DNA of 64,000 nucleotides from NCBI RefSeq assembly GCF_054482595.1, contig NZ_CM137008.1; one strand, given 5' to 3'. Within the stretch, counting starts at the first letter, position 1. Every line of letters starts with the position of its first letter. A model generated the notes under the pieces. That model saw nothing but the letters and a program-made list of their open reading frames with translations. It searched no databases and was not told where the DNA came from. This document shows positions 8,222-33,418 of this stretch, piece after piece. A program made the translations under genes and the position numbers.

Positions 8222-9202
8222 ATGAAAAAGATACCTTTAGGCACAACGGATATTACGCTTTCGCGAATGGGGTTGGGGACATGGGCCATTGGCGGCGGTC
8301 CTGCATGGAATGGCGATCTCGATCGGCAAATATGTATTGATACGATTCTTGAAGCCCATCGTTGCGGCATTAATCTGATTGATACTGCACCAGGATATAA
8401 TTTTGGCAATAGTGAAGTTATCGTCGGTCAGGCGTTAAAAAAACTGCCCCGTGAACAGGTTGTAGTAGAAACCAAATGCGGCATTGTCTGGGAACGAAAA
8501 GGAAGTTTATTCAACAAAGTTGGCGATCGGCAGTTGTATAAAAACCTTTCCCCGGAATCTATCCGCGAAGAGGTAGAAGCCAGCTTGCAACGTCTGGGTA
8601 TTGATTACATCGATATCTACATGACGCACTGGCAGTCGGTGCCGCCATTTTATACGCCGATCGCTGAAACTGTCGCAGTGCTTAATGAGTTAAAGGCTGA
8701 AGGGAAAATTCGCGCTATAGGCGCTGCTAACGTCGATGCCGACCATATCCGCGAGTATCTGCAATATGGTGAACTGGATATTATTCAGGCGAAATACAGT
8801 ATCCTCGACCGGGCAATGGAAAACGAACTGCTGCCGCTATGTCGTGATAATGGCATTGTGGTTCAGGTTTATTCCCCGCTAGAGCAGGGATTGTTGACCG
8901 GCACCATCACTCGTGATTACGTTCCGGGCGGCGCTCGGGCAAATAAAGTCTGGTTCCAGCGTGAAAACATGCTGAAAGTGATTGATATGCTTGAACAGTG
9001 GCAGCCACTTTGTGCTCGATATCAGTGCACAATTCCCACTCTGGCACTGGCGTGGATATTAAAACAGAGTGATTTAATCTCCATTCTTAGTGGGGCTACT
9101 GCACCGGAACAGGTACGCGAAAATGTCGCAGCACTGAATATCAACTTATCGGATGCAGACGCAACATTGATGAGGGAAATGGCAGAGGCCCTGGAGCGTT
9201 AA
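8222..9202 (+). CDS. ydjG: Aldo-keto reductase YdjG
   Basis: 326-aa ORF with AKR fold hallmarks (IDTAPGY, catalytic tetrad context); starts 10 bp after ydjH. Confidence 0.88.
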   Translation: MKKIPLGTTDITLSRMGLGTWAIGGGPAWNGDLDRQICIDTILEAHRCGINLIDTAPGYNFGNSEVIVGQALKKLPREQVVVETKCGIVWERKGSLFNKVGDRQLYKNLSPESIREEVEASLQRLGIDYIDIYMTHWQSVPPFYTPIAETVAVLNELKAEGKIRAIGAANVDADHIREYLQYGELDIIQAKYSILDRAMENELLPLCRDNGIVVQVYSPLEQGLLTGTITRDYVPGGARANKVWFQRENMLKVIDMLEQWQPLCARYQCTIPTLALAWILKQSDLISILSGATAPEQVRENVAALNINLSDADATLMREMAEALER

Positions 9203-9228
9203 ATACTCAACACGATTCACCTCTGTTT

Positions 9229-9256
9229 CTGTGAAAACTGTGATGAAAATCTGTGA
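9229..9256. promoter_or_regulatory. Three direct CTGTGA repeats (starts 9229, 9238, 9251) upstream of ydjF; candidate operator or CRP half-sites
   Basis: Read directly: ctgtgaaaa / ctgtgatgaaaat / ctgtgattcaaa, between the ydjG stop and the ydjF GTG start. Confidence 0.3.
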
Positions 9257-9338
9257 TTCAAACAGGTTATTTTGAAAGTAAACATCGGTTATGCGATAAT
9301 CGCGCTAATGTGATGTAAAAAGATACAGGGGTGTAATC

Positions 9339-10097
9339 GTGGCGGCAAAAGACAGGATTCAGGCAATTAAGCAAATGGTTGCCAACGATAAAAAGGTGAC
9401 AGTCTCAAATTTGAGTGGGATTTTTCAGGTAACCGAAGAAACCATTCGCCGCGATCTTGAGAAGCTGGAAGATGAAGGCTTTTTGACCAGAACCTATGGT
9501 GGTGCTGTTTTAAATACAGCGATGTTGACGGAGAATATCCATTTTTATAAGCGCGCTTCATCGTTTTATGAAGAGAAGCAGCTTATTGCACGCAAGGCAC
9601 TACCCTTTATCGACAATAAAACCACCATGGCAGCCGATTCCAGTAGTACCGTAATGGAATTGCTCAAATTGTTACAGGACCGTAGTGACCTGACGTTGCT
9701 AACCAACTCGGCGGAAGCGATTCATGTTCTGGCTCAGTCAGAAATTAAAGTCGTTTCAACGGGTGGGGAACTAAACAAAAATACACTTTCACTGCAAGGA
9801 AGAATTACTAAAGAGATCATCAGCCGCTACCATGTCGATATCATGGTAATGAGTTGTAAAGGTCTTGATATTAACAGCGGCGCGCTGGACTCTAATGAAG
9901 CGGAAGCTGAAATCAAAAAGACAATGATCCGTCAGGCGACAGAAGTTGCGTTATTGGTTGATCACTCTAAGTTTGATCGCAAAGCTTTTGTCCAGTTAGC
10001 TGACTTTAGTCATATTAATTACATAATAACTGATAAATCACCGGGTGCAGAGTGGATAGCATTTTGCAAAGACAATAATATCCAGCTGGTGTGGTAA
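9339..10097 (+). CDS. ydjF: DeoR-family transcriptional regulator YdjF (GTG start)
   Basis: 252-aa ORF; N-terminal HTH (TVSNLSGIFQVTEETIRRDLEKLE) and DeoR C-terminal sugar-phosphate-binding domain; initiation codon is GTG. Confidence 0.88.
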   Translation: MAAKDRIQAIKQMVANDKKVTVSNLSGIFQVTEETIRRDLEKLEDEGFLTRTYGGAVLNTAMLTENIHFYKRASSFYEEKQLIARKALPFIDNKTTMAADSSSTVMELLKLLQDRSDLTLLTNSAEAIHVLAQSEIKVVSTGGELNKNTLSLQGRITKEIISRYHVDIMVMSCKGLDINSGALDSNEAEAEIKKTMIRQATEVALLVDHSKFDRKAFVQLADFSHINYIITDKSPGAEWIAFCKDNNIQLVW

Positions 10098-10214
10098 TTT
10101 AAGCACACGTTGTCAATATTATTTGTTCCTGCGCCTGGAAATAAAATGATGATAAAGATGCGGCAAGTGAATTTGCCGCAATTGCTACCTTTTTTAGCAA
10201 ATCCGAGGCACCCA

Positions 10215-11573
10215 ATGGAACAATATGATCAAATTGGCGCAAGACTGGACCGCTTGCCTTTGGCCCGGTTTCATTATCGTATATTTGGTATTATAAGCTT
10301 TAGTCTGTTATTAACAGGGTTTTTGAGTTACTCCGGTAATGTCGTCTTAGCAAAGCTGGTAAGCAATGGATGGTCAAATAATTTCCTCAATGCCGCCTTT
10401 ACCTCGGCATTAATGTTTGGTTATTTCATCGGCTCTCTTACCGGTGGGTTCATCGGTGATTACTTTGGGCGGCGCAGGGCGTTTCGCATAAATCTTCTCA
10501 TCGTCGGTATTGCTGCAACAGGGGCCGCTTTTGTCCCTGATATGTACTGGCTCATCTTCTTTCGCTTCCTGATGGGAACAGGAATGGGGGCGCTGATTAT
10601 GGTTGGCTATGCCTCATTTACGGAGTTTATCCCCGCGACGGTGCGTGGAAAATGGTCCGCGCGGCTCTCATTTGTTGGTAACTGGTCGCCCATGCTGTCT
10701 GCGGCGATAGGTGTGGTGGTTATCGCTTTTTTTAGTTGGCGGATAATGTTTCTGCTGGGTGGTATTGGCATACTGTTAGCCTGGTTTCTTTCAGGTAAAT
10801 ACTTTATTGAGTCGCCACGATGGCTGGCAGGGAAAGGGCAAATCGCAGGTGCAGAAAGCCAACTTCGTGAAGTAGAGCAGCAAATTGAAAGAGAGAAGAG
10901 TATTCGTTTACCCCCGCTTACTTCGTATCAGAGCAACAGCAAGGTTAAAGTAATCAAGGGTACTTTCTGGCTCCTGTTTAAAGGTGAAATGTTACGACGT
11001 ACATTAGTCGCGATTACTGTTTTAATTGCAATGAACATTTCGCTTTATACCATCACCGTATGGATACCGACCATATTTGTTAACTCCGGCATTGATGTCG
11101 ATAAATCAATATTAATGACCGCTGTTATTATGATTGGCGCTCCGGTAGGAATATTTATTGCGGCATTAATTATTGATCATTTTCCTCGTCGGTTATTTGG
11201 CTCCACCTTACTTATTATTATTGCCGTGTTAGGCTATATCTATTCAATTCAGACTACAGAGTGGGCGATTTTAATCTATGGCCTGGTGATGATATTCTTT
11301 TTATACATGTATGTTTGCTTCGCGTCGGCGGTTTATATCCCGGAGCTTTGGCCAACGCATTTACGCCTGCGCGGTTCGGGTTTCGTTAATGCCGTCGGAC
11401 GGATCGTCGCAGTCTTCACGCCCTATGGCGTTGCGGCATTATTAACACATTATGGGTCGATCACGGTGTTTATGGTACTTGGTGTCATGTTATTGCTCTG
11501 TGCGCTGGTTCTCTCCATTTTTGGCATCGAAACGCGAAAGGTGTCGTTGGAAGAGATTTCTGAGGTGAATTAA
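10215..11573 (+). CDS. ydjE: MFS-family transporter YdjE
   Basis: ORF 10110-11573; start placed at MEQYDQIGARLDRL (452 aa); GDYFGRRRA MFS motif; paralogous in layout to YdjK. Confidence 0.85.
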   Translation: MEQYDQIGARLDRLPLARFHYRIFGIISFSLLLTGFLSYSGNVVLAKLVSNGWSNNFLNAAFTSALMFGYFIGSLTGGFIGDYFGRRRAFRINLLIVGIAATGAAFVPDMYWLIFFRFLMGTGMGALIMVGYASFTEFIPATVRGKWSARLSFVGNWSPMLSAAIGVVVIAFFSWRIMFLLGGIGILLAWFLSGKYFIESPRWLAGKGQIAGAESQLREVEQQIEREKSIRLPPLTSYQSNSKVKVIKGTFWLLFKGEMLRRTLVAITVLIAMNISLYTITVWIPTIFVNSGIDVDKSILMTAVIMIGAPVGIFIAALIIDHFPRRLFGSTLLIIIAVLGYIYSIQTTEWAILIYGLVMIFFLYMYVCFASAVYIPELWPTHLRLRGSGFVNAVGRIVAVFTPYGVAALLTHYGSITVFMVLGVMLLLCALVLSIFGIETRKVSLEEISEVN

Positions 11574-16056: not shown

Positions 16057-16172
16057 TAATTGTCGCGAAACTGTCTGGATTGTGAGCAAAGGCGCAGGAA
16101 TTCAGACACTCTCACTTATCACTTCACGGAATGAGGGTTACCATACCCGGATTGCATTGACAGGAGATGTCC

Positions 16173-17216
16173 ATGAGCGAGAACTCGATTCGTTTGACCC
16201 AATACAGCCACGGAGCTGGTTGCGGCTGTAAAATTTCCCCAAAAGTGTTGGAAACCATCCTGCACAGTGAGCAGGCGAAGTTTGTTGATCCGAATTTGCT
16301 TGTGGGTAATGAAACCCGCGACGATGCGGCGGTGTACGATCTGGGCAATGGCACCAGCGTTATCAGTACTACCGACTTCTTTATGCCGATCGTTGATAAT
16401 CCTTTCGATTTTGGCCGCATTGCGGCGACTAACGCCATCAGCGATATCTTCGCGATGGGGGGCAAACCGATTATGGCGATTGCGATCCTCGGCTGGCCGA
16501 TTAACAAACTTTCCCCAGAAATTGCCCGCGAAGTAACCGAAGGTGGACGCTATGCATGCCGTCAGGCGGGTATTGCGCTGGCTGGCGGTCACTCCATCGA
16601 TGCGCCGGAGCCGATTTTTGGTCTGGCGGTAACGGGGATCGTACCGACCGAGCGGGTGAAGAAAAACAGTACCGCACAAGCCGGATGCAAACTGTTCCTG
16701 ACGAAACCGCTGGGGATCGGCGTTCTTACCACGGCTGAGAAAAAATCACTGCTGAAACCAGAACATCAGGGACTGGCGACGGAAGTGATGTGCCGGATGA
16801 ACATCGCAGGCGCGTCCTTTGCCAACATTGAAGGCGTAAAAGCGATGACCGACGTAACGGGCTTTGGCCTGCTGGGCCATTTGAGCGAAATGTGTCAGGG
16901 CGCAGGTGTGCAGGCGCGTGTTGACTATGACGCGATCCCGAAATTGCCGGGGGTTGAAGAGTACATTAAGTTGGGTGCAGTGCCTGGCGGCACCGAACGT
17001 AACTTTGCCAGCTACGGTCATCTGATGGGTGAAATGCCGCGTGAAGTGCGCGATTTGCTGTGCGATCCGCAAACTTCTGGCGGTTTGCTGCTGGCGGTCA
17101 TGCCGGAAGCAGAAAATGAGGTTAAAGCTACAGCCGCCGAGTTTGGCATTGAACTGACGGCGATTGGCGAACTGGTGCCAGCGCGCGGCGGTCGTGCCAT
17201 GGTTGAGATCCGTTAA
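16173..17216 (+). CDS. selD: Selenide, water dikinase (selenophosphate synthetase)
   Basis: [12 protein letters not shown]-terminal active-site loop and AIR-synthase-like fold; start at MSENSIRL (347 aa). Confidence 0.92.
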
Positions 17217-21809: not shown

Positions 21810-22044
21810 AGATATAAAACCCTTATATATTAATACGATTGTGCTTATGTTGTTTATGTGATGTGCTTTTGCAGTTTTCGACTATACCATCAAGAATGTG
21901 ACGGTAAGCAAGAAAAAAATGACCCAGGAAAGCAAATTAATAACGAGAGTAATCTCATAACCAAATGCGATAACTCAGACGCTAAAGTTTTGCCACCCGG
22001 CTACCGTTATCAGTAGCAGAGACAATAACGTTAAGGAGTTCCCT

Positions 22045-22317
22045 GTGAGTCGAGCATTGTTCGCCGTAGTATTAGCATTTCCATTAATTGCACTGGCTAA
22101 CCCGCATTATCGTCCGGACGTGGAGGTAAACGTACCGCCAGAAGTGTTCAGTTCAGGCGGGCAGTCAGCGCAGCCCTGTACTCAGTGCTGCGTTTATCAG
22201 GATAAAAATTATTCTGAAGGGGCGGTAATTAAAGCCGAAGGAATACTGCTGCAATGCCAGCGGGATGACAAAACCCTTAGCACTAATCCGCTGGTCTGGC
22301 GGCGCGTAAAGCCATAA
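22045..22317 (+). CDS. ynjH: Small secreted DUF1496 protein YnjH
   Basis: 90-aa ORF with N-terminal signal peptide (MSRALFAVVLAFPLIALA) and four Cys; 3' end overlaps nudG by 35 bp. Confidence 0.75.
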   Translation: MSRALFAVVLAFPLIALANPHYRPDVEVNVPPEVFSSGGQSAQPCTQCCVYQDKNYSEGAVIKAEGILLQCQRDDKTLSTNPLVWRRVKP

Positions 22318-22690
22318 ACGCCTCTAATAATGGAATGTCAGCAGGAGCCAGCGGATATTGCAGCGCCTCTTCAGGTGAGCACCAGACCAGCGCCTGATGT
22401 TCATGTGCCTGTAACGTCCCGTGGAAGTCGGGTACGTGCCAGGCATGAAGATGGATAATCCGCCCCGAAACTTCTCGCTGATGGCTGGCAACATACTCAC
22501 CCACAGTTGCTTCGATGCCCAATTCTTCGTTTAACTCACGCACCAGCGCCTGCTGCTGGCTTTCATCCAGCTCGACTTTACCACCGGCAAACTCCCATAA
22601 TCCCGCCTGATCGCTCTGGGCGGGGCGTTGCGCGAGTAAAATTTTGCCATCACGTTCAATGATGGCGGCAACAACTTCAATCATTTTCAT
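22283..22690 (-). CDS. nudG: Nudix hydrolase NudG (CTP/5-methyl-dCTP pyrophosphohydrolase)
   Basis: 135-aa ORF with Nudix box GGKVELDESQQQALVRELNEELGI. Confidence 0.9.
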   Translation of the reverse strand: MKMIEVVAAIIERDGKILLAQRPAQSDQAGLWEFAGGKVELDESQQQALVRELNEELGIEATVGEYVASHQREVSGRIIHLHAWHVPDFHGTLQAHEHQALVWCSPEEALQYPLAPADIPLLEAFMALRAARPAD

Positions 22691-22770
22691 AAATTACACA
22701 CGGGCAGATAAGCGAAAAATGCCATAATATCCGCACTGTTGCTCAATTAGAAAGGCTTTATATTTAAGGA

Positions 22771-23397
22771 GTGCCTGTGCTAGACCGCCATCTTCATCCC
22801 CGGATTAAACCGTTGTTGCATCAGTGCGTGCGGGTTCTTGATAAACCGGGCATTACGCCAGATGGTTTAACATTAGTGGGATTTGCCATCGGCGTGCTGG
22901 CTCTGCCGTTTCTGGCTCTGGGCTGGTATCTGGCGGCGCTTGTCGTCATTTTGTTGAATCGTCTGCTTGATGGTCTGGATGGCGCACTGGCGCGGCGCAG
23001 AGGGCTTACCGACGCGGGCGGCTTTCTTGATATTTCTCTCGATTTTCTCTTTTACGCGCTGGTGCCGTTTGGTTTTATTCTTGCTGCACCGGAGCAAAAT
23101 GCGCTGGCAGGCGGCTGGTTGTTGTTTGCGTTTATCGGTACGGGCAGCAGTTTTCTCGCCTTTGCTGCGCTGGCGGCGAAACATCAGATTGATAATCCCG
23201 GTTATGCGCATAAATCGTTTTATTATCTGGGGGGATTAACCGAAGGCACAGAAACGATCTTACTGTTTGTGCTGGGATGTTTATTCCCTGCATGGTTTGC
23301 GTGGTTTGCGTGGATCTTCGGTGCGTTGTGCTGGATGACGACCTTTACGCGGGTGTGGAGTGGGTATCTGACGCTGAAGTCGCTCCAGCGTCAGTAA
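22771..23397 (+). CDS. ynjF: CDP-alcohol phosphatidyltransferase-family membrane protein YnjF (GTG start; the true start may be the second GTG at 22777)
   Basis: Polytopic membrane ORF with the CDP-OH phosphotransferase motif region DGxxAR (LDGLDGALARRRGLTDAGG); no ATG at the 5' end. Confidence 0.8.
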   Translation: MPVLDRHLHPRIKPLLHQCVRVLDKPGITPDGLTLVGFAIGVLALPFLALGWYLAALVVILLNRLLDGLDGALARRRGLTDAGGFLDISLDFLFYALVPFGFILAAPEQNALAGGWLLFAFIGTGSSFLAFAALAAKHQIDNPGYAHKSFYYLGGLTEGTETILLFVLGCLFPAWFAWFAWIFGALCWMTTFTRVWSGYLTLKSLQRQ

Positions 23398-23405
23398 TTG
23401 CAATG

Positions 23406-24713
23406 TTATTTGCTGCTGTCCGGGCCGCGTTCACCGGTTGCTACCGGATTTTTTGGATCGCTGCTCCATTCGTACCAGCCGCCGTCGTAAACGGAGACGT
23501 TATTCCAGCCCATTGCTCGTGCGTACATAAAGGTTTCGGACGCGCGCCAGCCGGTGCCGCAGTAGAATGAAACTTGCTGATCTGGTTTGATATTCCATGC
23601 TTTCCACATAGCGGTAATATCATCGGCGCTACGCATGGTGCCATCCGGGTTATGGAAATCTTCCATATGCGTCGAGTCGCTACCAGCGTGTCCCCAACGT
23701 GCTCCGGCTATTTCACCTTTTGGTTTAATATAGCTGTAACCGCTGGTCGTACCGATAAACTCCGGCCACGAACGAATGCTCACCAGCGATGCATCCTGGC
23801 GATGCAGCAGTCCACGGGCCTGTTCCATATCGAGCATCAACTGCGGTTGTGCCGGGATCTTCACGCCGAAATCCGGTTCCGCTTTCACTTTCGGTGGCGT
23901 TCCTCGCTCAACAGGCAGTCCCGCGTCGGACCAGGTTTGCCAGCCGCCATCCAGCAGGCGCACATCTTTCACGCCTGCATACAGCATAATCTGCGCCACA
24001 CGCGCTGCAGCGTATACGTCACGCCCGTACAGAATGACCGTGGTGTCATGGCGAATGCCGTGTTTTGCCAGCATCGCTTTTAGTTGTTCATCAGAAACTT
24101 TGTTCCACAGCGGTTCGCTTTCCACTTCGTTGGTATCGATGTAGTCAGCACCGGGAATATGGCTGATAAGGTAAAGCTTAGGAGCGCCCCAGGCCGCTTC
24201 AATGACTTTCCAGTCTCCGGCAGGTTTCGCCGTAACCTCTTTACCTTGTTGCAGGTCGTGCAGCCATTGCGGATAAACCAGCTGCTCAAAGTGCGGCAGT
24301 TTTTGTAGACGGGAAGGTTCGCTTAGCGCGTCACTCAGAATGGAGATATGCGTAAAACCTGCTTTTTGCAGTCGCGTTTTGACGGCGTCGACATCTTTGC
24401 CATTACCGTACAGCGCCACCGGGGCATCGGCTTTCAGGTTATGTTGCTTGATCCACGCGTTGAGCTGTTCGGTGCTCATTTTGTCAAGCCAGCTAGCAGA
24501 GAGGTTTAAGGCGGCAGGTTCATGACCAGAAGGGCCATTTAAGGTTTGTGGCCAGCCGTTATAAAACGCGCTGGGGCGAGTATCTATCGCTTTGCCATTT
24601 TGTTGTTGAAGCTGGTCAAGTGTAAGAGGCTTCGCCAGTTCAGCGGCCCACGAAGAAGCGCAAGCCAGCCCTAAAGCCATTGCCAGCGCGGTCATTTGAG
24701 AAACACGTTTCAT
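23406..24713 (-). CDS. ynjE: Periplasmic triple-rhodanese thiosulfate sulfurtransferase YnjE
   Basis: Signal peptide MKRVSQMTALAMALGLACASSWA and a C-terminal rhodanese active site CGTGWRAS; start at MKRVSQ (435 aa). Confidence 0.88.
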   Translation of the reverse strand: MKRVSQMTALAMALGLACASSWAAELAKPLTLDQLQQQNGKAIDTRPSAFYNGWPQTLNGPSGHEPAALNLSASWLDKMSTEQLNAWIKQHNLKADAPVALYGNGKDVDAVKTRLQKAGFTHISILSDALSEPSRLQKLPHFEQLVYPQWLHDLQQGKEVTAKPAGDWKVIEAAWGAPKLYLISHIPGADYIDTNEVESEPLWNKVSDEQLKAMLAKHGIRHDTTVILYGRDVYAAARVAQIMLYAGVKDVRLLDGGWQTWSDAGLPVERGTPPKVKAEPDFGVKIPAQPQLMLDMEQARGLLHRQDASLVSIRSWPEFIGTTSGYSYIKPKGEIAGARWGHAGSDSTHMEDFHNPDGTMRSADDITAMWKAWNIKPDQQVSFYCGTGWRASETFMYARAMGWNNVSVYDGGWYEWSSDPKNPVATGERGPDSSK

Positions 24714-24779
24714 CGAAAATCCCGACATTGTAGTTTTGAGTGCGCCATTCTGAACTGACGCATTGAGAAAAACTTTGCG

Positions 24780-25433
24780 TTATCGCAGTTTGTTGTAATT
24801 TTCTGACCACTGAGCCATATCCAGAACAGAACTATCAGCAGGAACATCCTGGAGATCGTGCGTTACCTGAACGACGGGGATCGCCAGGGCGCGAACTTCG
24901 CTGAACACCCACTGGCGAAAATTATCGCGCAGAGCCACATCAAGACGGCTGAATGGCTCATCCAGTAGCAACGCTTTTGGCTGAGCGAGAAGGGCGCGAA
25001 GCAGAGCAACGCGCGCTCGCTGACCGCCAGACAAAGTGGCAGGATCCTGATGGAAAGCTCCGTCAAGGCCTGAACGCTCAAGTGCATCATTCACGGCATT
25101 ACGTCGGGCATTCCCCTTAAGTGTCGCCGGTAGCGCCAGCAGTAAATTTTGCCCGACACTGAACTGGTCAAATAACAGTGCATCCTGAAAAAGAATGCCA
25201 ATCTGACGCTGTGCGGTGGGTAGCATGTCAATCCGTTGCTCATTGAGCCATAGCTCACCTGTACAAGAAAACTGTCCGGCCAGTGCACCAATCATCCATG
25301 AAAACAGAGTGGATTTTCCACAGCCAGACGGCCCCATTAACGTGACAATGTCACCTTTATCCACCGTAAAGTTAACGTTTGTCAGCAAGCGGCTTTCTGG
25401 TAAACGTAGCGAAACATTTTTCACGCAGAGCAT
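24780..25433 (-). CDS. ynjD: ABC transporter ATP-binding protein YnjD
   Basis: Walker A GPSGCGKST, ABC signature LSGGQRARVAL, Walker B LLLDEPFS; start at MLCVKNVSL (217 aa), overlapping the ynjC stop. Confidence 0.88.
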   Translation of the reverse strand: MLCVKNVSLRLPESRLLTNVNFTVDKGDIVTLMGPSGCGKSTLFSWMIGALAGQFSCTGELWLNEQRIDMLPTAQRQIGILFQDALLFDQFSVGQNLLLALPATLKGNARRNAVNDALERSGLDGAFHQDPATLSGGQRARVALLRALLAQPKALLLDEPFSRLDVALRDNFRQWVFSEVRALAIPVVQVTHDLQDVPADSSVLDMAQWSENYNKLR

Positions 25434-26968
25434 TAGCGGAGTCCTTGTCTGACATAACCTACCCATTTTGCGACTAACGCGGTCAGGGCAAAAATAATAA
25501 GCGGTAATAGCAGTTGCCATAAAGCCTGGGCGGCGAGAATACCGTTGCTGCCGCCGCTGCTTAATGCCACCGCCTCAGTGGTGAGCGTCGGAAAACGCCC
25601 CGCGCCCAGCCACAGCGTCGGCATATACTGCGCAATACTGACTGAAAATCCCACTGCGAAGGCAATCAGCGTAGGGCGTAGCATAAACGGACATTTCACG
25701 TAAAAGAAGATTTTGACACGCGACCAGCCCAGCGTTTGCGCAATCAAAATTAACCGTGAATCAATGCGCTGCCAGGCGGGTTGCAGGATAAACAGCATCC
25801 ACGGTATTACCCACAGCAGATGCCCCCAGACCACCGCCGTCCAGCTCCCATCCAGGTTCAGCCAGAGCGCCAGCGTGTACTGGCCCGCCACCAGCGGCAG
25901 TGCCGGTAATAAAATGGGCAACCATAACCACAACTGGCGACGCTGTGGCCCCCATTCCAGCCACAGCAGTAACAGGAGCAAAGCGATGAATGTCGCCACC
26001 AGCCCCATTGTCAGGCTGTTGATGAGCGCTTCACTATTGATCGTTGATTGATCCGCGAGGATCGCCAGCAGAACCACACACAGCACACCGGTCAAGGGTA
26101 AAAAACTCGCCAGCGTAATGCCTGGCAATAAAGGCGTGGCAAGCTTGCGAACGCCATCTACGCGGGGAATAGTACGCCGCCAGCTACGCCATAGCAGATA
26201 GCCCAGCAAAACGTAGGCGGCGAGTAACAGCATCAGCAGCAGGCTGGCGAGTGCGCCTTTAATCTGTTGATCGGTATCGCCCTGGGTTAACCACTGCCAG
26301 CTAATTACCGCAAGCGTCGGTGGATTACCTGGCCCAAGAATAATCGCCACATCCACGACCGACAGCGACCAGGCAACAATCGCCAGCATCGCCATTGCAA
26401 GTGCAGGAGCAACGGAGGGCAACAGCAGCCAGTTCAAACATTGCCAACGGCTGTAACCCAGCGAATCCAGCACAATGACCTGCTGCAACAGCCGTTTTTC
26501 ACTCAATACCGCTGCTAAGATCCACAGCAGAAATGCGCTTTCTTTCACCGCCAGCGTGAAGCCCAGCCCAATACCCAATTTGTCCATTGGCGGAGTGAAA
26601 TACGGGAAATAGTCATAAAGCAGCCCTCCGTCAGCAAAGAGCAGAAGGGCGCTGGTGGCAAAAGCCACATGGGGAATGGCGAGCAGCCACGGCAGACGGG
26701 TGCACATACGCTGCCATTTCGGCCCAGGCCACAGCGCCACAATCACCAGCAGGGCAATCAACAACGCCCCGACCGCCGCGATGGTTGTCGACACCAGCGT
26801 TGCCAGTAATGCCTGCGGTAACTGTGGATCGGCAAATAACGCCTGCCAGTGTGTCAACGACAAAGCAGGCGATATCAGCGTGAGAGCTGCCGGGATCAGC
26901 GGTGCATAAATCACCGCCACCATCGCCCACAGCAAAAAGATTAATGCGTACCGTAACGGTGTAGCCAT
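25433..26968 (-). CDS. ynjC: ABC transporter permease YnjC (duplicated six-TM permease, fused type)
   Basis: About 511 aa, highly hydrophobic, two permease repeats as in ThiP/FbpB-type importers; start overlaps the ynjB 3' end by 28 bp. Confidence 0.85.
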   Translation of the reverse strand: MATPLRYALIFLLWAMVAVIYAPLIPAALTLISPALSLTHWQALFADPQLPQALLATLVSTTIAAVGALLIALLVIVALWPGPKWQRMCTRLPWLLAIPHVAFATSALLLFADGGLLYDYFPYFTPPMDKLGIGLGFTLAVKESAFLLWILAAVLSEKRLLQQVIVLDSLGYSRWQCLNWLLLPSVAPALAMAMLAIVAWSLSVVDVAIILGPGNPPTLAVISWQWLTQGDTDQQIKGALASLLLMLLLAAYVLLGYLLWRSWRRTIPRVDGVRKLATPLLPGITLASFLPLTGVLCVVLLAILADQSTINSEALINSLTMGLVATFIALLLLLLWLEWGPQRRQLWLWLPILLPALPLVAGQYTLALWLNLDGSWTAVVWGHLLWVIPWMLFILQPAWQRIDSRLILIAQTLGWSRVKIFFYVKCPFMLRPTLIAFAVGFSVSIAQYMPTLWLGAGRFPTLTTEAVALSSGGSNGILAAQALWQLLLPLIIFALTALVAKWVGYVRQGLR

Positions 26969-28107
26969 TCTTGTTCCAGCGCATTTACCCAACCTGCGTG
27001 CGGTTCAGCCAGTACTGGCGGCAGATCTTGAGGCATTCTTGATTGCAATGTTTCGCGCTGCCCATCAGGCAGTTTTTGCGGATCGAGAACAGAAGGATCG
27101 CCCCAGACAGCGGGATCTGCTTTACGCAATTGCGCATCGGGTGAGAGCAAGAAATTGGCAACTACCTTCGCCGCAGCACTGGCATTCGCGTTGGCAGGAA
27201 TGGTGACGAAATGCACGTTGCCAATCATCCCCTCGCGAAAGCCAAAACTGTAACTGCTTGCAGGCAAATCGCCGCTGGCGATTTTTTGCTGCGCATGCGC
27301 GGGGTTAAAGGTCAGCGACAGGCGCAATGTGCCGGATTTCAGCAGAGCATCCATCCGCGCGGGCGAAGGCGGGAAATCCTTTCCTTCGCGCCACAAATAC
27401 GGATGCAGCGCATCAAGATATTGCCACAAGGGAGCAGTGACACGGGCGAAAGTCGCATCGTCCGGCGCTTCTTTTAATGCGGCGGGATCGGGCGTCAGCA
27501 TAATCAGCAACTGTTCAAGAAACGCCGTGCCGGTAAAGTCCGGTGGGCGCGGATAGGTAACCGTGCCGGGATTGGCTTTAGCAAACTCCAGTAAGGCTTG
27601 CGGCGTTTGTGGTGGCTGTGGCGTAACATCGCGGCGGGCGATAAATGTCAGTTGTGCGCCCCCCCAGGGCGATTCAGCCCCTTCTGTAGGCACTGAAAAA
27701 TCTTCCCGCACCGGCAGCTGTGTGTCGACATAGCGCCAGTTGGGCAGAGTCTCTGCCCAGTCGGTTTGCAGTAAATTGGCCTCTTTTAAGGTGCGGAAGT
27801 TTTCGCCGTTCACCCAGAGCAGATCCACCGAGCCGCCCGTTTTACGTCCGGCAGCAGCTTCGGTCTGAATGCGCTTCACCGCGTCTGCGGCATCCGCCAG
27901 ACGAACAATCTTCAGGTTTATAGCGTAATGGGTTTTCATCTCGCCGCTCACCCAGTCGAGATAGCGGTTAATTGCGGTATCGCCGCCCCAGGCGTTAAAC
28001 CAGACAGTTTGCCCTTTGGCCTCATTATTAATTTCTTGCCAGTCACTGGCATGTGTTGCCAGAGAAAACAGCGAGAACAATCCCAGCAACCACCCACAAT
28101 GGCGCAT
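26941..28107 (-). CDS. ynjB: ABC transporter periplasmic substrate-binding protein YnjB
   Basis: 388-aa ORF with an N-terminal signal peptide (MRHCGWLLGLFSLFSLATHA) and a thiamine/iron/sulfate-type binding-protein fold by recollection. Confidence 0.85.
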   Translation of the reverse strand: MRHCGWLLGLFSLFSLATHASDWQEINNEAKGQTVWFNAWGGDTAINRYLDWVSGEMKTHYAINLKIVRLADAADAVKRIQTEAAAGRKTGGSVDLLWVNGENFRTLKEANLLQTDWAETLPNWRYVDTQLPVREDFSVPTEGAESPWGGAQLTFIARRDVTPQPPQTPQALLEFAKANPGTVTYPRPPDFTGTAFLEQLLIMLTPDPAALKEAPDDATFARVTAPLWQYLDALHPYLWREGKDFPPSPARMDALLKSGTLRLSLTFNPAHAQQKIASGDLPASSYSFGFREGMIGNVHFVTIPANANASAAAKVVANFLLSPDAQLRKADPAVWGDPSVLDPQKLPDGQRETLQSRMPQDLPPVLAEPHAGWVNALEQEWLHRYGTH

Positions 28108-28116
28108 CATCTCTCC

Positions 28117-28665
28117 TTAAGAACGTTTTTCCGGAATACGGCACAGCCCCTGAGCGGGAATGTCCATGGCAGAATTAAAACGGGCTGACAGATTTTGCAG
28201 GCCGATCAATGCCGTCAGTTCGGTGAGCGCCTGAGCGTCAAAATGCGCAGCCAGTCGGGTGCGCAGGGCATCATCGACCGTTGGCGGTGTGACGCTTGCG
28301 GCTTCGGCGTACTCCAGCGCCAGCCGTTCTTCATCGCTGAAGAGCGGGCTTTGCCGCCAGTCAGCCACTGCCAGCAGTTTATCGCTGCTGCCGGTGCGCT
28401 CGGCGACTTTCATACTGGTGATATCCACGCAAAACTCACACAGGCACATTTGCGCAATGCGCGCGCTGACAAGCGATCGTACTACCGGATCGAGCGGTGA
28501 GCGTTTGCGCTCCAGCCAGCCAACAAACATCGACACCAGATAAAAGATAAACGGGATCCGCCCCCACCAGCGAATGGGGCTTAGCACCTCGCCGTAATGG
28601 CGACGATGCAGCCACGCCTGCGGACGTAAAATGAAAGGAATTTTGCTAAGCGGCGGTAAACCCAT
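28117..28665 (-). CDS. ynjA: AhpD-like / carboxymuconolactone decarboxylase-family protein YnjA
   Basis: 182-aa ORF containing the Cys-rich core MCLCEFCVDITS typical of the AhpD-like fold; its stop overlaps the ydjZ region (ATGA junction at 28665). Confidence 0.8.
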   Translation of the reverse strand: MGLPPLSKIPFILRPQAWLHRRHYGEVLSPIRWWGRIPFIFYLVSMFVGWLERKRSPLDPVVRSLVSARIAQMCLCEFCVDITSMKVAERTGSSDKLLAVADWRQSPLFSDEERLALEYAEAASVTPPTVDDALRTRLAAHFDAQALTELTALIGLQNLSARFNSAMDIPAQGLCRIPEKRS

Positions 28666-29372
28666 CAGGCATTCCTCTTCTGGCGCTCAAGCCATATTTT
28701 CTTCGCCATAAAAATCACCACGCTCAGGGCAAACAGAATAAACAGTCCGGTGACAAACCAGAAGGTACCGCCTGTTAACATGCTGCCCGCCCAGGAATAA
28801 ACAATAGTCGCCGGTAACTGACCAAGCCCGGTGGCGATAAAAAACGAGCGAAAACGGATTGAAGTCAAACCGGCAGCATAGCTGATTGGATCGAAAGGGA
28901 CAAAAGGCAATAACCGACAGACCAGGATAGTGTGTTTGCCGTAGCGAGTGAAAAAGCCGTCCATACTGTCAAGTACGGTTTTGCCGGTTAATTTTTCCAC
29001 CACTTCGCGGCCCATCACTCTGGCGATAAAAAAGCACAGCGCCGCGCCGGCCATCGAACTGGTCCACGACAGCAAGCCGCCCCAGAGCGCGCCAAACAGC
29101 GACGCATTGGCAAAGGTGATCAAAAACGCAGGTAGCGGTGCAGCAATGGCCTGCAAAATCATCAACAAGAACGAGACAACTGCCGCCAGTGCGCCGTAAG
29201 ACTGAATAAAGCGTTCTATACCCTGTTGGTCCACGGCGGCAAACGCCGCAACGCTGCGATTGATAAACTCATGGACGCTGGGAAGCAGCGCCCATGCCAG
29301 CAGCATAGCGAACAACAGGATGATGAGGGTTATACGGTAGTACCAGATTTTTCGCGATTGCATCTTCATCAT
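28665..29372 (-). CDS. ydjZ: DedA/TVP38-family inner-membrane protein YdjZ
   Basis: 235-aa polytopic ORF with the DedA-family core (…RLLPFVPFDPISYAAGLT…). Confidence 0.85.
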   Translation of the reverse strand: MMKMQSRKIWYYRITLIILLFAMLLAWALLPSVHEFINRSVAAFAAVDQQGIERFIQSYGALAAVVSFLLMILQAIAAPLPAFLITFANASLFGALWGGLLSWTSSMAGAALCFFIARVMGREVVEKLTGKTVLDSMDGFFTRYGKHTILVCRLLPFVPFDPISYAAGLTSIRFRSFFIATGLGQLPATIVYSWAGSMLTGGTFWFVTGLFILFALSVVIFMAKKIWLERQKRNA

Positions 29373-29386
29373 CCTTTATCCTGGCT

Positions 29387-30064
29387 TTATTCGGTGATTT
29401 TAAAGGTAACCGTTGCCAGCGTGTTATCCGCCGGGAGAACCGAGGCATTGCCTTTGAATTTAACTTCACCTCGTTTTTCAACCGCACCATAAGTGTATGT
29501 TGCATTGCTGACGATGCCGACCGGGCAGCTATCCAGACACACCAGGCAACCCGTTTTCTTCTCTTCTGCTGCCGTTAAATTACCGCCAAAGCGCATGTCC
29601 AGTTTCTTGCCATTACTGTCAACAATCACTTCATCGAAGGAATACGTTTTTGCCGCCCCTTGCCAGTTGACCGAAATATCCAGTTTGCTGCCCGTGACAT
29701 GAGTCGTTTCTTTATTATCCATCGTCATGTTTTCGCCCGGCGTACCACCTGCCTCTTTCAGGGCTTCATAAAATGCTTTCGGGGTCGCATAACCCATAAA
29801 CAGCGATTTATGTCCGTTGGAGCCATCTTTAAACACAATACCGTGACGAGTGTCGTCGGTGAGGAAACGACCATTAATTTGCACCAGCATGGTTACCGTA
29901 TGGTTATTGGCATCGACGCGCAGCGGTTGGCTGTTCGAAAGTCCGTCGTATTCCACTTTTGCCGCCGCATTCTCTTTTTGATCACAGCCGCTAAGCCCAG
30001 CAACAGCCAGTAAGCAGAGTGCAGTCAGTCCTTTTTTCCATGACACTGAATAATGTTGCAACAT
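29387..30064 (-). CDS. ydjY: Periplasmic lipoprotein YdjY with a C-terminal CxxCxxxC motif
   Basis: Start placed at MLQHYSVSWKKGLTALCLLAVAGLSGC (lipobox LSGC, 225 aa); C-terminal CLVCLDSC metal-binding-like motif. Confidence 0.8.
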   Translation of the reverse strand: MLQHYSVSWKKGLTALCLLAVAGLSGCDQKENAAAKVEYDGLSNSQPLRVDANNHTVTMLVQINGRFLTDDTRHGIVFKDGSNGHKSLFMGYATPKAFYEALKEAGGTPGENMTMDNKETTHVTGSKLDISVNWQGAAKTYSFDEVIVDSNGKKLDMRFGGNLTAAEEKKTGCLVCLDSCPVGIVSNATYTYGAVEKRGEVKFKGNASVLPADNTLATVTFKITE

Positions 30065-30068
30065 CGTT

Positions 30069-30779
30069 CTATCCTTCATTTTTTGGGTGAGTAAGTGGGT
30101 TGCGGCGCGAAGCAGACAGATCCACATGTTTGTGTCGGGCGTAGAGTTTGGCGAGCTGGACGAGAATAAACAGCGCCAGGCCCGCCAGACAGAGTTGTAA
30201 AATAAAGCGCAGCGTAATGCCTTCATTGGCGAGATCGCTTGCCATCACGGTATAAATAACAATACCGGGCAGGGTCGTGAGTGCCGAAATAAGGATATAA
30301 GGCCAGAAGGCGATTGTGGTTAATCCGTAAGCGTAATTTTGAATATTGTAAGGAAACAACGGGATTAAGCGGGTCAGAATAAGAAAATCAATACCGTTAC
30401 GCGCAATGCCTTTTTCAATGGCCTGGAAGGTATGGCTATGGCCAACGTATTTCAGCAGTAAATCACGTCCCAGCCAGCGCGCCAGCAGGAATGAGCACGA
30501 GGAGGCCAGCGTAGCGGCAATTAATGAGAGTAGTGTCCCTAAGAGCGGGCCAAAAACTATTCCTCCCGCGATCACCAGTATGCTTCCTGGTAACAGAAAG
30601 AGGGTGGCAATAATGAATAACAGAATATAGAGGCTATAACCGAACAATCCGCTCTGGCGAATGAGTGTCTGTAAGTGGGGTAAATCGGTGAGCAGATCGA
30701 ATAAACCGAAAGCGTGGATAGCGTAAATGACCAGCGCAAAAATAAGACAGGCAAAAAGAAATTTACGCTCAGCGTTCAT
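30069..30779 (-). CDS. ydjX: DedA/TVP38-family inner-membrane protein YdjX
   Basis: Start placed at MNAERKFLFA (236 aa); paralogous to YdjZ (…RLIPLFPYNIQNYAYGLT… versus …RLLPFVPFDPISYAAGLT…). Confidence 0.85.
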   Translation of the reverse strand: MNAERKFLFACLIFALVIYAIHAFGLFDLLTDLPHLQTLIRQSGLFGYSLYILLFIIATLFLLPGSILVIAGGIVFGPLLGTLLSLIAATLASSCSFLLARWLGRDLLLKYVGHSHTFQAIEKGIARNGIDFLILTRLIPLFPYNIQNYAYGLTTIAFWPYILISALTTLPGIVIYTVMASDLANEGITLRFILQLCLAGLALFILVQLAKLYARHKHVDLSASRRNPLTHPKNEG

Positions 30780-30945
30780 CGTGGAGTTTCCTATATCAAA
30801 CTTGATAATAGAGAAGTGGTCAGACAACTAAAAACGCAGAGACGGTATAACAAAGGACGGCAGGCAACAAATCATTACTGACAGTTTGTTGATTTTTCTC
30901 AAGGTTAATTCTCCTGGCCCAGTTTGAGCCAGGAGAGCTGCTAAA

Positions 30946-31752
30946 TTAGCGGCGGAAGGTCGCCCAGACGGGGGCGTGATCGGACGGTTTTTCCATGCTG
31001 CGAATTTCATAGTCGATGCCGGTTTCTACGCAACATTCTGCCAGCGGTTGGCTGGCGAGCAGCAGGTCGATGCGCAGACCACGGTTATCGTCAAAACCTT
31101 TTGAGCGGTAATCAAACCATGAGAAACGATCTGCTGTTTGCGGATTCGCATGGCGGAAGGTATCGACCAACCCCCAGCTCATCAGTCTCTCCATCCATTC
31201 GCGTTCCTCCGGAAGGAAAGAACATTTTCCGGTACGCAGCCAGCGCTTACGGTTCTCTTCGCCAATGCCAATATCCAGGTCGCCAGGACTGATATTCATA
31301 TCGCCCATAATCAGCACCGGATTTTCACGCTTGAGTTCGGTTTCCAGGTAGTTTTGCAGGTTCTGATAAAACTGCGCTTTTGCCGGGAATTTTATCGGAT
31401 GGTCGCGGCTTTCACCCTGCGGGAAGTAACCGTTGATCACGGTGACATTACCCAGCGGTGAGGGGATTTCCGCCATAATAATCCGCCGCTGCGCCTCTTC
31501 GTCGTCACCGGGAAAGCCGCGACGCACGGCAATCGGCGTCTCTTTGGTCAGCAGCGCCACGCCATAATGGCCTTTCTGCCCGTGATAAAACACGTTGTAG
31601 CCGAGCTTCGCCACCTCTTCGAGCGGAAACATATCGTCATGAACTTTTGTCTCCTGCAGGCCAATCACATCCGGTTGGTGCTTTTCGACGATGGCTTCAA
31701 GCTGGTGGGGCCTGGCGCGCAGGCCGTTGATATTAAAAGAGACAAATTTCAT
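30946..31752 (-). CDS. xthA: Exodeoxyribonuclease III (AP endonuclease VI)
   Basis: Start at [14 protein letters not shown] (268 aa); EEP-family nuclease motifs (GLQETK, GDMNISP, SDHAPV). Confidence 0.93.
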
Positions 31753-32109
31753 AGTCGCTGCCATTTATTCAGATAAAGAGTGCGTGGATGGTAGCAGAAT
31801 TTCGCTTTGCTTACCGCCTGTTGTTAAGTGATTTGATCGATGGTTGTTAATGATGTCAACGATGGCGCAAAAAATGCCCGCTTTTGGTGCGCGCTGCGTC
31901 AGAATGGCGCAGTAATTTCCAGTAAATTTCGTCAATGATCACAATTCCAGAATTATATTTTACTTCTGCATAACATTGCGTTTTTTATTCTTTTTATTCA
32001 CCCACATCGCAAACGTATTCACTTAATATGCACTTTAAATGCATATGGTTTGGTTATAACTCCTTGATTTCCAGTTAGCCTCCGCGGTTTATGCACTTTT
32101 ATCACTGGC

Positions 32110-32125
32110 TGGCACGAACCCTGCA
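32110..32125 (+). promoter_or_regulatory. Sigma-54 (-24/-12) promoter upstream of astC: TGGCAC-gaacc-CTGCA
   Basis: The sequence matches the TGGCAC-N5-TTGCA consensus with one mismatch and lies about 70 bp upstream of the astC ATG. Established knowledge: the ast operon has an NtrC/sigma-54 promoter. Confidence 0.7.
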
Positions 32126-32161
32126 ATCTACATTTACAGCGCAAACATTACTTATTATTAA

Positions 32162-33414
<1,253 letters not shown>

Positions 33415-33418
<4 letters not shown>

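Follow-up and report, generated by a model that had tools for sequence, protein, structure and literature searches.

The ydjXYZ-ynjABCD operon of Escherichia coli, with ynjE and probably ynjF, as a candidate anaerobic system for selenium or chalcogen acquisition

The ydjXYZ-ynjABCD operon of Escherichia coli, found here at positions 24780-30779 of a 64,000-nucleotide stretch of contig NZ_CM137008.1 (assembly GCF_054482595.1; the whole stretch is called the window), encodes two DedA-family membrane proteins (YdjX and YdjZ), a lipoprotein (YdjY), an AhpD-like protein (YnjA) and an ATP-binding cassette (ABC) importer (YnjBCD). We tentatively propose, with a confidence a little below even, that these genes, together with the neighboring rhodanese gene ynjE and probably the phosphatidyltransferase gene ynjF, constitute an anaerobic system for selenium/chalcogen acquisition and trafficking across the inner membrane. 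The proposal is built on features observed in this analysis, namely the gene order and coupling, the protein families, an FNR box, the co-localization of the same families across phyla, and a significant linkage to SelD, YedF, SelA and SelB; FNR activation and the co-regulation with yedEF and ynjE are taken from the literature.

Conservation of the module across phyla

YdjY was used as the anchor of the comparison. Two peptide patterns, scanned over one genome per species (100,044 species), matched 125 places, so that the family looks rare and patchy. The 80 best loci were dereplicated to 49 groups at 80% YdjY identity, to which all fractions of 49 given below refer. In the 80 loci the open reading frames were called and searched with the E. 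coli proteins, the neighbors were clustered without prior assumptions (clusters were named by NCBIfam), and the neighbor families were recounted over the full 10-kb flanks of YdjY.

A DedA protein of the YdjX/YdjZ type lies within 3 kb of YdjY in 43 of the 49 groups and is adjacent on the same strand in 29, and an X-like and a Z-like copy occur together in 14. The X-like copies are those fused to Fer4/CCG domains in Deltaproteobacteria, and the Z-like copies are those adjoining YdjY in Bacillota. CCG or Fer4-CCG (HdrD-like) proteins are present in 19 groups (fused to DedA in 10), and a disulfide-reductase-like partner, either CCG/Fer4 or, in the enterics, YnjA, in 21. YnjA itself is limited to the two enteric groups of this YdjY-anchored set, with close relatives in Klebsiella, Raoultella, Citrobacter and Edwardsiella, and it appears to be a lineage-specific occupant of the slot after ydjZ that is held elsewhere by CCG/Fer4 proteins.

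In twenty groups a gene next to YdjY encodes a small membrane protein of ~130 aa, with roughly four hydrophobic helices and a conserved W-L-x-M-R motif, which has no counterpart in E. coli (L061 10735-11157, L054 4717-5097, L038 10793-11212, L029 8174-8578, L019 12745-13179 and L064 3311-3688). A long Bacillota DedA of 390 aa has an N-terminal extension with which this protein can be aligned; the fusion to DedA is seen at L045 10632-11801, and a single-seed search scored it in 1 group. The other recurrent families are CofC-like/kinase and GT2 transferases (11/49), which we take to be Haft's 'rSAM/selenodomain-associated' transferases, ArsS-family radical-SAM proteins (7/49), YnjF-type transferases (7/49), MprF-like flippase-domain proteins (6/49) and rhodaneses (6/49).

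The components are assembled in different orders. In seven Bacillota loci, YnjB orthologues (1e-56 to 1e-75), two permeases and an ATPase are contiguous with YdjY-DedA, for instance as YnjB-C-C-D-transferase-YdjY-YdjZ (L029). The order in Campylobacter concisus is YdjY-small membrane protein-CofC/kinase-YdjZ-YdjX-GT2-Fer4/CCG-ArsS, with a YnjE orthologue (2e-78) nearby, and a rhodanese is also found in the YdjY loci of Catonella and Facklamia. Genes for the ArsS-family '(seleno)protein', CofC-like/kinase and GT2 proteins are interleaved with YdjY and DedA in three C. concisus loci (L064, L067, L070) and in L019, L032, L049, L055, L078 and L079. This arrangement suggests that the ArsS system of these anaerobes may share a process with YdjY-DedA, possibly one other than arsenosugar synthesis; no link of ArsS with DedA was found in the searchable literature. 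The L055 locus, from a deltaproteobacterial metagenome-assembled genome (MAG), carries tandem YdjY paralogues (9113-9859 and 9914-10558) behind a Fer4/CCG-DedA fusion, with ArsS and YedF downstream.

Among the Gammaproteobacteria, the locus of Klebsiella pneumoniae reads xthA / DedA-DedA-YnjA-YnjB-YnjC-YnjD-rhodanese / transferase / NUDIX and occupies the chromosomal position that it has in E. coli. Here ydjY is absent and the two DedA genes overlap directly (L090 6651-8004), as in a natural 'deletion'. One gammaproteobacterial contig (L094) has DedA-YdjY-DedA-YnjA-rhodanese with the ABC genes absent, and in Edwardsiella hoshinae YnjA overlaps a YnjF-type transferase on one strand, followed by a rhodanese and a single DedA. 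The constants in this class are DedA, YnjA, YnjE and usually YnjF, and YdjY and the ABC importer are detachable. The original prediction, made from the letters of the window, had drawn the boundary around seven genes, which is too narrow: ynjE and ynjF co-occur with these genes in Klebsiella, Edwardsiella, a further gammaproteobacterium, C. concisus and Bacillota, ynjE belongs functionally to the module, and ynjF is its probable member. Within the Enterobacterales, a comparison that it had advised, Klebsiella and Edwardsiella share much of the neighborhood; both are without ydjY, and Edwardsiella is also without the ABC genes.

Linkage to selenium metabolism

In the unbiased clustering, selenium genes are the only pathway-specific genes among the recurrent YdjY neighbors. 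Within 10 kb of YdjY, SelD is encoded in 6 and YedF in 8 of the 49 groups, SelB in two groups and SelA in one. At least one of the four is present in 9/49 groups, against at most 0.3-0.5 expected by chance for loci of ~20 genes in genomes of 2000-3000 genes (Poisson P 9e-11 to 3e-9). The genomic and regulatory association that a DedA selenium transporter should show is found, in these 9 groups and in the co-regulation of the E. coli operon with yedEF (PMC7888660).

The linked loci include a Syntrophaceae MAG with DedA(CCG fusion)-YdjY-SelD, a Desulfobacterales MAG with SelD-YedF-x-YdjY, and a Desulfocapsaceae MAG with YedF-cysteine-desulfurase-family gene-x-SelD...YdjY. The desulfurase-family gene of the last falls just under the TIGR01977 cut-off, and its second-best match, selenocysteine lyase SclA, is also below cut-off. 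The Facklamia lactis locus reads ArsS-CcdA-ResA/TlpA-like-DedA-DedA-...-YdjY-rhodanese, then two genes, then SelD-YedF-SelB-SelA, and thus holds the complete selenocysteine trait. For the Fer4/CCG protein of C. concisus the best NCBIfam match is 'diclust_near_Sec', below its cut-off.

A DedA protein has already been connected with selenium. In experiments with Campylobacter jejuni, loss of Cj1168c/SelF (described as a '603 bp, DedA homolog') lowered formate dehydrogenase activity when selenite was nanomolar, and the protein is thus needed for the full activity of the enzyme (PMC11237541). A 2022 review stated that no high-affinity selenium transport system had been identified in prokaryotes (PMC9312934), and DedA, ydj and ynj go unmentioned in a 2015 paper on the comparative genomics of selenium.

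In the window itself, selD (16167-17216, plus strand) lies 5.6 kb beyond ynjF, with topB, ynjI, gdhA, ynjH and nudG in between (ydjA-selD-topB arrangement). This proximity is weak support for the selenium reading.

Organization of the operon in E. coli

The region 24780-30779 consists of seven open reading frames, all on the minus strand, on which the RefSeq annotation and our own translation agree, and the same-strand packing described in the original prediction is confirmed. The first gene, ydjX (30069-30779), encodes a DedA/TVP38-TMEM64 (COG0398-type) inner-membrane protein of 236 aa (RefSeq). It is followed by ydjY (29387-30064), for a lipoprotein of 225 aa with a YdjY domain (PF27149 / NF040466), by ydjZ (28665-29372), for the second DedA/TVP38-TMEM64 protein, of 235 aa (RefSeq), and by ynjA (28117-28665), for an AhpD/CMD-fold protein of 182 aa. 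The importer is encoded by ynjB (26941-28107; periplasmic solute-binding protein, 388 aa), ynjC (25433-26968; fused double permease, 511 aa) and ynjD (24780-25433; ABC ATPase, 217 aa). The families are those named in the original prediction, and both motifs quoted there are present, C173-LV-C176-LDS-C180 in YdjY and M-C74-L-C76-EF-C79 in YnjA.

The genes are separated by gaps of 4 nt (ydjX/ydjY), 14 nt (ydjZ after ydjY) and 9 nt (ynjA/ynjB), the ynjB and ynjC reading frames overlap by 28 nt, and the ynjC/ynjD junction is TAATG, with a 1-nt overlap. The tight packing and the 28-nt overlap are as first described, but the ydjZ/ynjA junction is not the 4-nt ATGA given there; it is TGATG, also with a 1-nt overlap. 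That the genes form one unit agrees with the literature, in which ydjXYZ-ynjABCD is an FNR-activated operon (PMC3688515). The searchable literature gives no substrate or biochemical role for the seven genes, in line with the absence of an assigned role noted at the outset.

Several complete E. coli genomes match the 6-kb region with 100% identity, and 5312 of the 5426 complete genomes of the species contain the block at a coverage of 80% or more. The arrangement ydjX-ynjD is an ordinary, real and conserved one of the operon type, and a chance pattern is dismissed. The guanine-cytosine content of the region (47-57%) is ordinary for E. coli, recent horizontal transfer is rejected on this ground, and no compositional anomaly was seen in the region. 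An Rfam scan of 22000-32200 returned no riboswitch or other RNA family at the gathering threshold.

Regulation and promoter region

The operon was reported to be activated by FNR, with an FNR site located by chromatin immunoprecipitation at -60.5 (PMC3688515). An FNR-type box, TTGAGAAAAATCAA, is found at 30889..30902, read on the coding (minus) strand, with a 9/10 match to TTGAT-N4-ATCAA. The edge of the box nearer to ydjX lies 110 nt before the ATG of that gene, and the box coincides with the published site (PMC3688515). Taken alone the motif is weak, because the window holds 5 such matches against 3.2 expected. The operon also belongs, with ynjE, yedEF and yjiLM, to an uncharacterized iModulon derived from E. 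coli transcriptomes by independent-component analysis, the activity of which is higher in anaerobiosis and reduced in mutants of fnr and arcA. Its authors suggested a link to molybdenum/selenium use, and inside this iModulon ynjE is listed as a transcription unit of its own (PMC7888660).

A separate ynjE promoter is possible. The 66-bp spacer between ynjD and ynjE contains, by consensus scan, a sigma-70-like hexamer pair, TTCAGA-16-TACAAT (24727..24754, minus strand), consistent with the separate transcription unit in the iModulon; the pair is weak evidence, since the region has fewer such sites than its shuffles. No intrinsic terminator was found between ynjD and ynjE in a scan of the minus strand.

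A perfect inverted repeat of 8 bp (CTCCTGGC...GCCAGGAG; 30911-30935, minus strand) lies in the interval from the FNR box to the xthA stop codon (30946). It was missing from the terminator scan because it has no T tract, and it may form the 3' hairpin of xthA or act as an insulator of the ydjX promoter. On BaeR overexpression, ynjA and ynjB rise 1.4-1.6-fold, an effect judged indirect by its authors (PMC2731931); being both small and indirect, it is given little weight as a pointer to envelope stress.

The DedA pair and the YdjY lipoprotein

YdjX and YdjZ are paralogues, with 27% identity over 197 aa. Both are named 'TVP38/TMEM64 family protein' in RefSeq, and the Klebsiella orthologues carry PF09335, which places the pair in DedA/COG0398. 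Their matches to DedA/UptA models are weak but significant, and in the model for UptA-type undecaprenyl phosphate transporters (NF052604) YdjX scores 27.3 and YdjZ 37.5 bits, far from the cut-off of 250 bits. YdjZ has been used as the COG0398 exemplar in a study of the superfamily, where it was argued that COG0398 is not a flippase of undecaprenyl phosphate and is the bacterial group closest to eukaryotic TMEM41B/VMP1; COG0398 is without the acidic (first re-entrant helix) and basic (second) residues tied to undecaprenyl phosphate transport, and its commonest fusion partners are pyridine-nucleotide-disulfide oxidoreductase domains (bioRxiv 10.1101/2023.01.04.522824). YdjX is still counted among the orphan transporters (PMC10971958). 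The 'membrane homeostasis' role first suggested for the pair is not favored here, as its partners are YdjY, disulfide-reductase-like proteins (often fused) and selenium-metabolism genes.

YdjY scores 146.4 bits in its family model NF040466 (cut-off 50). C173, C176 and C180 are invariant in 20 aligned homologues, as are R73-H74, and all three cysteines are kept in 82/82 YdjY motifs of the 80 loci, in which no selenocysteine variants of them were found. The lipobox is LSGC, followed by Asp-Gln. By the Lol-avoidance rules, Asp-Gln after the lipobox cysteine leads to inner-membrane retention, which is accordingly the location predicted for YdjY from its sequence. Structure searches with the AlphaFold2 model (predicted local distance difference test score, pLDDT, 90) returned no solved relative, and the modeled fold is neither ferredoxin-like nor thioredoxin. 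In some databases YdjY homologues carry the name 'ferredoxin'; for YdjY, a 4Fe-4S ferredoxin is rejected on the matches, the cysteine count, the signal type and the fold: the match to Pfam Fer4 has E values of 0.09-0.25 over 14 residues, PDB matches are insignificant (E 0.27-0.34), the mature protein has only three cysteines where the cluster motif CxxCxxCxxxCP needs four, and the sequence reads as a Sec-type lipoprotein without a twin-arginine signal.

YnjA, the YnjBCD importer, YnjE and YnjF

YnjA contains a CMD domain (PF02627, 5.3e-8), and its PDB relatives are 2ijc, 2o4d and AhpD 6k40 (3e-9 to 8e-6). The catalytic CxxC is present, C76-E-F-C79 being aligned with the CxxC of 2ijc. The histidine of the AhpD motif CxxCxxxH is replaced by threonine (CEFCVDIT in YnjA vs CAYCVNMH in 2ijc); YnjA is AhpD-like in fold, and not a canonical alkylhydroperoxidase, because this is the proton-relay residue. 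The best NCBIfam match is 'YciW-related (seleno)protein' (NF053654), with 101 bits, under the cut-off of 310.

The binding protein YnjB, the two permease domains of YnjC and the ATPase YnjD make up a type I ABC importer. YnjB has an N-terminal signal sequence in translation and belongs to SBP_bac_8 (family 8), within the PRK11622 subfamily (562 bits). Both halves of YnjC, which correspond to two separate permease genes in Bacillota, match permease models (the CysT/ModB/PhnU-type matches are weak), and the matches of YnjD to numerous ABC ATPase models (1e-30 to 1e-42) all fall below the respective cut-offs; neither protein reaches an equivalog cut-off that would give the substrate subfamily, be it sulfate/thiosulfate, thiamine, polyamine, phosphonate or Fe3+. 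A single-sequence PDB search with YnjB found no significant match, and a profile search gave matches at the 1e-5 level only, to PotD, 4edp and 2-aminoethylphosphonate (AEP) binders. Its Foldseek neighbors, at 12-17% identity, bind AEP, polyamines, Fe3+, metal-citrate, thiamine or sugars.

YnjE (23406-24713, minus strand; RefSeq) is a periplasmic three-domain rhodanese of 435 aa with a signal peptide, and its gene lies 66 bp downstream of ynjD on the same strand. The assignment follows from RefSeq, from the rhodanese models and from the active-site loop CGTGWR in the translation; a weak match to the model of ExtH, a selenite/tellurite-reduction rhodanese, was also seen. The protein is poorly active with thiosulfate and 3-mercaptopyruvate and its physiological substrate is described as unclear (PMC10215317). 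A crystal structure of YnjE has been published, as referred to in PMC10215317.

YnjF (22777-23397, plus strand) is a CDP-alcohol phosphatidyltransferase of 206 aa, encoded convergently with ynjE. The motif D-x2-DG-x2-AR-x7,8-G-x3-D-x3-D is present in the translation as LDGLDGALARRRGLTDAGGFLDISLD, and the Klebsiella and Edwardsiella orthologues carry PF01066. Its best NCBIfam families are archaetidylinositol-phosphate and PIP synthase; the two scores, 63 and 43 bits, are below the cut-offs of 170-180, and the same two families rank first for the transferases adjoining YdjY-DedA in Bacillota. No paper studying ynjF was found in the searchable literature.

Proposed mechanism

In the proposed system, a chalcogen, most likely trace selenium, would be captured in the periplasm and delivered in reduced form to the cytoplasm, with induction in anaerobiosis. 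The chemical steps, all of which we infer, would be the following. Periplasmic YnjE and the three-cysteine site of YdjY would hold the element in protein-bound form, as perselenide, selenotrisulfide or persulfide. By analogy with the DedA proteins of C. jejuni and Cupriavidus metallidurans, YdjX and YdjZ, probably as a heterodimer, would then mediate passage through the inner membrane. In the cytoplasm a thiol/disulfide reductase would resolve the adduct (S-Se or S-S), freeing selenide for use by SelD; the reductase would be the CxxC protein YnjA in the enterics and elsewhere a CCG/Fer4 HdrD-like protein, often fused to DedA. YnjBCD and YnjF would form a detachable sub-module, which may import a cofactor or carrier, or anchor it to lipid.

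Several points weigh against this scheme. No selenium gene is found within 10 kb of YdjY in 40/49 lineages, and the independent events of linkage are fewer than nine, because the linked lineages fall into two clades (Deltaproteobacteria/Desulfobacterota and Facklamia). SelF may belong to COG0586 rather than COG0398. YdjY is not essential to the enteric module, since it is absent in Klebsiella and Edwardsiella. Rhodanese, YedF/TusA-like and cysteine-desulfurase-like proteins serve sulfur trafficking too, and a role of YnjE in molybdenum cofactor sulfur transfer has been published (as cited in PMC7888660). The Bacillota loci with YnjB-ABC and YnjF-type genes have neighbors of the lipid type (flippase-like, CofC/kinase, GT2), not selenium genes, and the need for a phosphatidyltransferase and an ABC importer is left unexplained by the model.

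Alternative explanations

In anaerobiosis the same proteins could instead transfer sulfane sulfur, whether persulfide, polysulfide or S0 derived from thiosulfate, between the cytoplasm and the periplasm, for example as a supply for the biosynthesis of molybdenum cofactor or Fe-S clusters or for the detoxification of polysulfide, with YnjE as the persulfide carrier, YdjY as the acceptor, the DedA pair as the conduit and YnjA/CCG as persulfide reductases. We consider this rather unlikely. It would agree with the annotation of the rhodanese as thiosulfate sulfurtransferase, with the description of YnjE as a molybdopterin sulfurtransferase (as cited in PMC7888660) and with the CCG/HdrD-like domains, which are classic heterodisulfide reductase modules, as well as with the weak matches of YnjC and YnjD to sulfate/thiosulfate CysT and CysA models; the TusA-like YedF and the cysteine-desulfurase-like neighbors have sulfur-trafficking folds too, and the majority of the YdjY loci are without selenium-specific genes. 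The sole pathway-specific neighbors, however, are SelD, SelA and SelB, with no cys, sox or dsr genes among the recurrent clusters, and the activity of YnjE with thiosulfate and 3-mercaptopyruvate is poor or nil (PMC10215317). The genes co-regulated with the operon in E. coli are yedEF, not cys (PMC7888660), and the rarity of the family (125 matches in ~100,000 species) is more in keeping with a trait for a trace element than with sulfur metabolism in general. A lipid head-group module, in which YnjBCD would import an alcohol that YnjF would combine with CDP-diacylglycerol into an unusual phospholipid, the COG0398 proteins would scramble or flip this phospholipid like TMEM41B and VMP1, and YdjY, YnjE and YnjA would modify or sense it, is in our view distinctly unlikely; selenium genes would then be linked in some lineages only. 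In its favor, 7/49 groups have a YnjF-type transferase along with YdjY-DedA, the transferase gene of Edwardsiella overlaps ynjA, in Bacillota the transferase forms a contiguous block with YnjB-type ABC genes, MprF-like flippase-domain proteins (6/49) and CofC-like/kinase and GT2 transferases (11/49) point the same way, and COG0398, without the residues of undecaprenyl phosphate flippases, resembles eukaryotic scramblases (bioRxiv 10.1101/2023.01.04.522824). But the invariant three-cysteine protein, the rhodanese, the DedA-reductase fusions (10/49) and the SelD/SelA/SelB linkage are left unexplained, and YdjY-DedA occurs without transferase or ABC genes in L094 and in many Firmicutes and delta-proteobacterial loci. 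The searchable literature holds no ynjF study, hence no support for a novel E. coli phospholipid.

Handling of a metalloid (arsenic, tellurium) is very improbable. YdjY would bind As(III) or a similar species through its three cysteines, the module would take it up or sequester it, and in organisms with ArsS it would feed the synthesis of an organoarsenical (arsenosugar or arsenolipid). As(III) is typically liganded by three cysteines close together; ArsS radical-SAM proteins are encoded near YdjY in 7/49 groups, together with CofC-like, kinase, GT2 and phosphatidyltransferase proteins able to build a sugar-phospholipid, and the weak match of YnjE to the ExtH model can be read in the same sense. 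Yet arsM, arsR, arsB, acr3 and arsC are absent from the recurrent neighbor clusters, the E. coli, Klebsiella and Edwardsiella versions are without ArsS, and neither FNR control nor yedEF co-regulation is an arsenic response. The ArsS loci moreover overlap those with SelD/YedF (L055, L078, L079), and the ArsS link does not discriminate against selenium, because NCBIfam flags ArsS as a '(seleno)protein' family. That the genes have no common function, and are co-transcribed for historical reasons while acting independently, the two DedA proteins in housekeeping, the importer as an orphan and the AhpD-like protein as an antioxidant, is scarcely credible. The components are separable, since ydjY is missing in Klebsiella, the ABC genes in L094 and Edwardsiella, and YnjA outside the enterics; nevertheless, the families re-assemble in differing orders in Gammaproteobacteria, Campylobacterota, Desulfobacterota and Bacillota, and this re-assembly, with fusions (DedA-CCG, DedA-small membrane protein) and overlapping reading frames, argues for functional coupling.

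The selenium system proposed above could also work through a lipid-carrier chalcogen shuttle, a mechanism that has not been described for any element and that we regard as quite improbable. YnjF would make a dedicated phospholipid, the head group of which would be imported by YnjBCD or, in other lineages, made by the CofC/kinase/GT2/ArsS enzymes. The DedA pair is assigned the flipping of this lipid because proteins of the DedA superfamily are known to flip lipid; YnjE and YdjY would load selenium (or sulfur) in the periplasm, and after flip-back YnjA or the CCG reductase would free selenide for SelD.

Novelty and significance

The operon itself is already known, and a molybdenum/selenium connection has been voiced from expression data (PMC7888660). 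Measured against the searchable literature, four elements appear to be new: the extension of the module to ynjE and ynjF; the cross-phylum core of YdjY, a COG0398 DedA and a reductase-like protein, fusions included; the statistically supported linkage to SelD/YedF/SelA/SelB; and the view of YnjA as a lineage-specific substitute for the CCG/Fer4 partner.

If the proposal is true, the module would be the missing bacterial route for trace selenium, or a part of it, directly testable in E. coli K-12, and it would bear on the question of how selenium stays apart from sulfur on its way to SelD. It would give a first physiological role to COG0398, to which ~27% of the DedA proteins of bacteria belong and which stands nearest, among bacterial groups, to human TMEM41B/VMP1, and a first role to the YdjY fold and to the long-standing E. 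coli orphans YnjE, YnjA and YnjF. If the lipid shuttle were true, a defined lipid substrate could be assigned to the DedA proteins of COG0398 and, through them, to the bacterial relatives of TMEM41B/VMP1, and the missing high-affinity selenium route would be identified. Even if the assignment to selenium is wrong, nine E. coli y-genes form one conserved, modular, membrane-spanning redox system with a core of DedA and reductase.

Neighboring genes

Beyond ynjF, ynjH (22045-22317, plus strand) and nudG (22283-22690, minus strand) are convergent, with a 35-bp overlap. The latter encodes a CTP pyrophosphohydrolase and adjoins ynjF in both E. coli and Klebsiella, which may or may not be meaningful with respect to CDP-linked substrates. 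On the other side of the operon, astC (32198-33418, plus strand) has an in-frame amber codon, TAG, at 32774-32776, where strain XH990 has CAG (Gln). The gene is split into open reading frames 32198-32776 and 32789-33418, so that succinylornithine transaminase is probably truncated, or astC a pseudogene, in this strain.

Comparison with known systems

SelF of C. jejuni and the DedA protein of C. metallidurans are, like YdjX and YdjZ, DedA-family inner-membrane proteins; they are implicated in selenite uptake and, as the module would be, relevant to anaerobic or microaerobic formate dehydrogenase selenoproteins. Unlike the module, each of them consists of a single gene, for which a partner of the YdjY, rhodanese, reductase, ABC or transferase type has not been described. 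YedE/YedF, a putative selenium transporter and a TusA/DsrE-like protein, are candidates for selenium delivery upstream of SelD, as is the module, with which they are co-regulated in E. coli (PMC7888660); YedF genes lie next to YdjY in 8/49 lineages. YedE, however, is of the YeeE/YedE sulfur-transporter-like family, unrelated to the module proteins, and YedE/YedF have no periplasmic component.

The COG0586 proteins UptA and YghB/YqjA have the superfamily fold (PF09335, with re-entrant helices) in common with YdjX and YdjZ, the genomic partners of which are redox and selenium proteins rather than the cell-wall genes of these flippases. COG0398 is the bacterial subfamily nearest to the VTT-domain scramblases TMEM41B, VMP1 and TMEM64, and the lipid-enzyme neighbors of the module are compatible with a lipid substrate; the scramblases are without a three-cysteine partner, rhodanese or reductase fusion. 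In its architecture and fold, YnjBCD is the same as the type I importers of the PotD/PhnS/FbpA/TbpA/CysP kind, but YnjB stands apart as a subfamily of its own (PRK11622), 12-17% identical to binders of known ligand.

The DsbD and CcdA-TlpA/ResA relays follow a comparable logic, in that a reductase in the cytoplasm is connected by a conduit in the membrane to a cysteine protein outside the cytoplasm, and the Facklamia cluster also encodes CcdA and a ResA/TlpA-like thioredoxin. The difference is that DedA is unrelated to DsbD/CcdA and YdjY does not have the thioredoxin fold. In general, the module works most like SelF-type selenium acquisition and, in its logic, like a DsbD-type relay, and it is a multi-component variant of neither.

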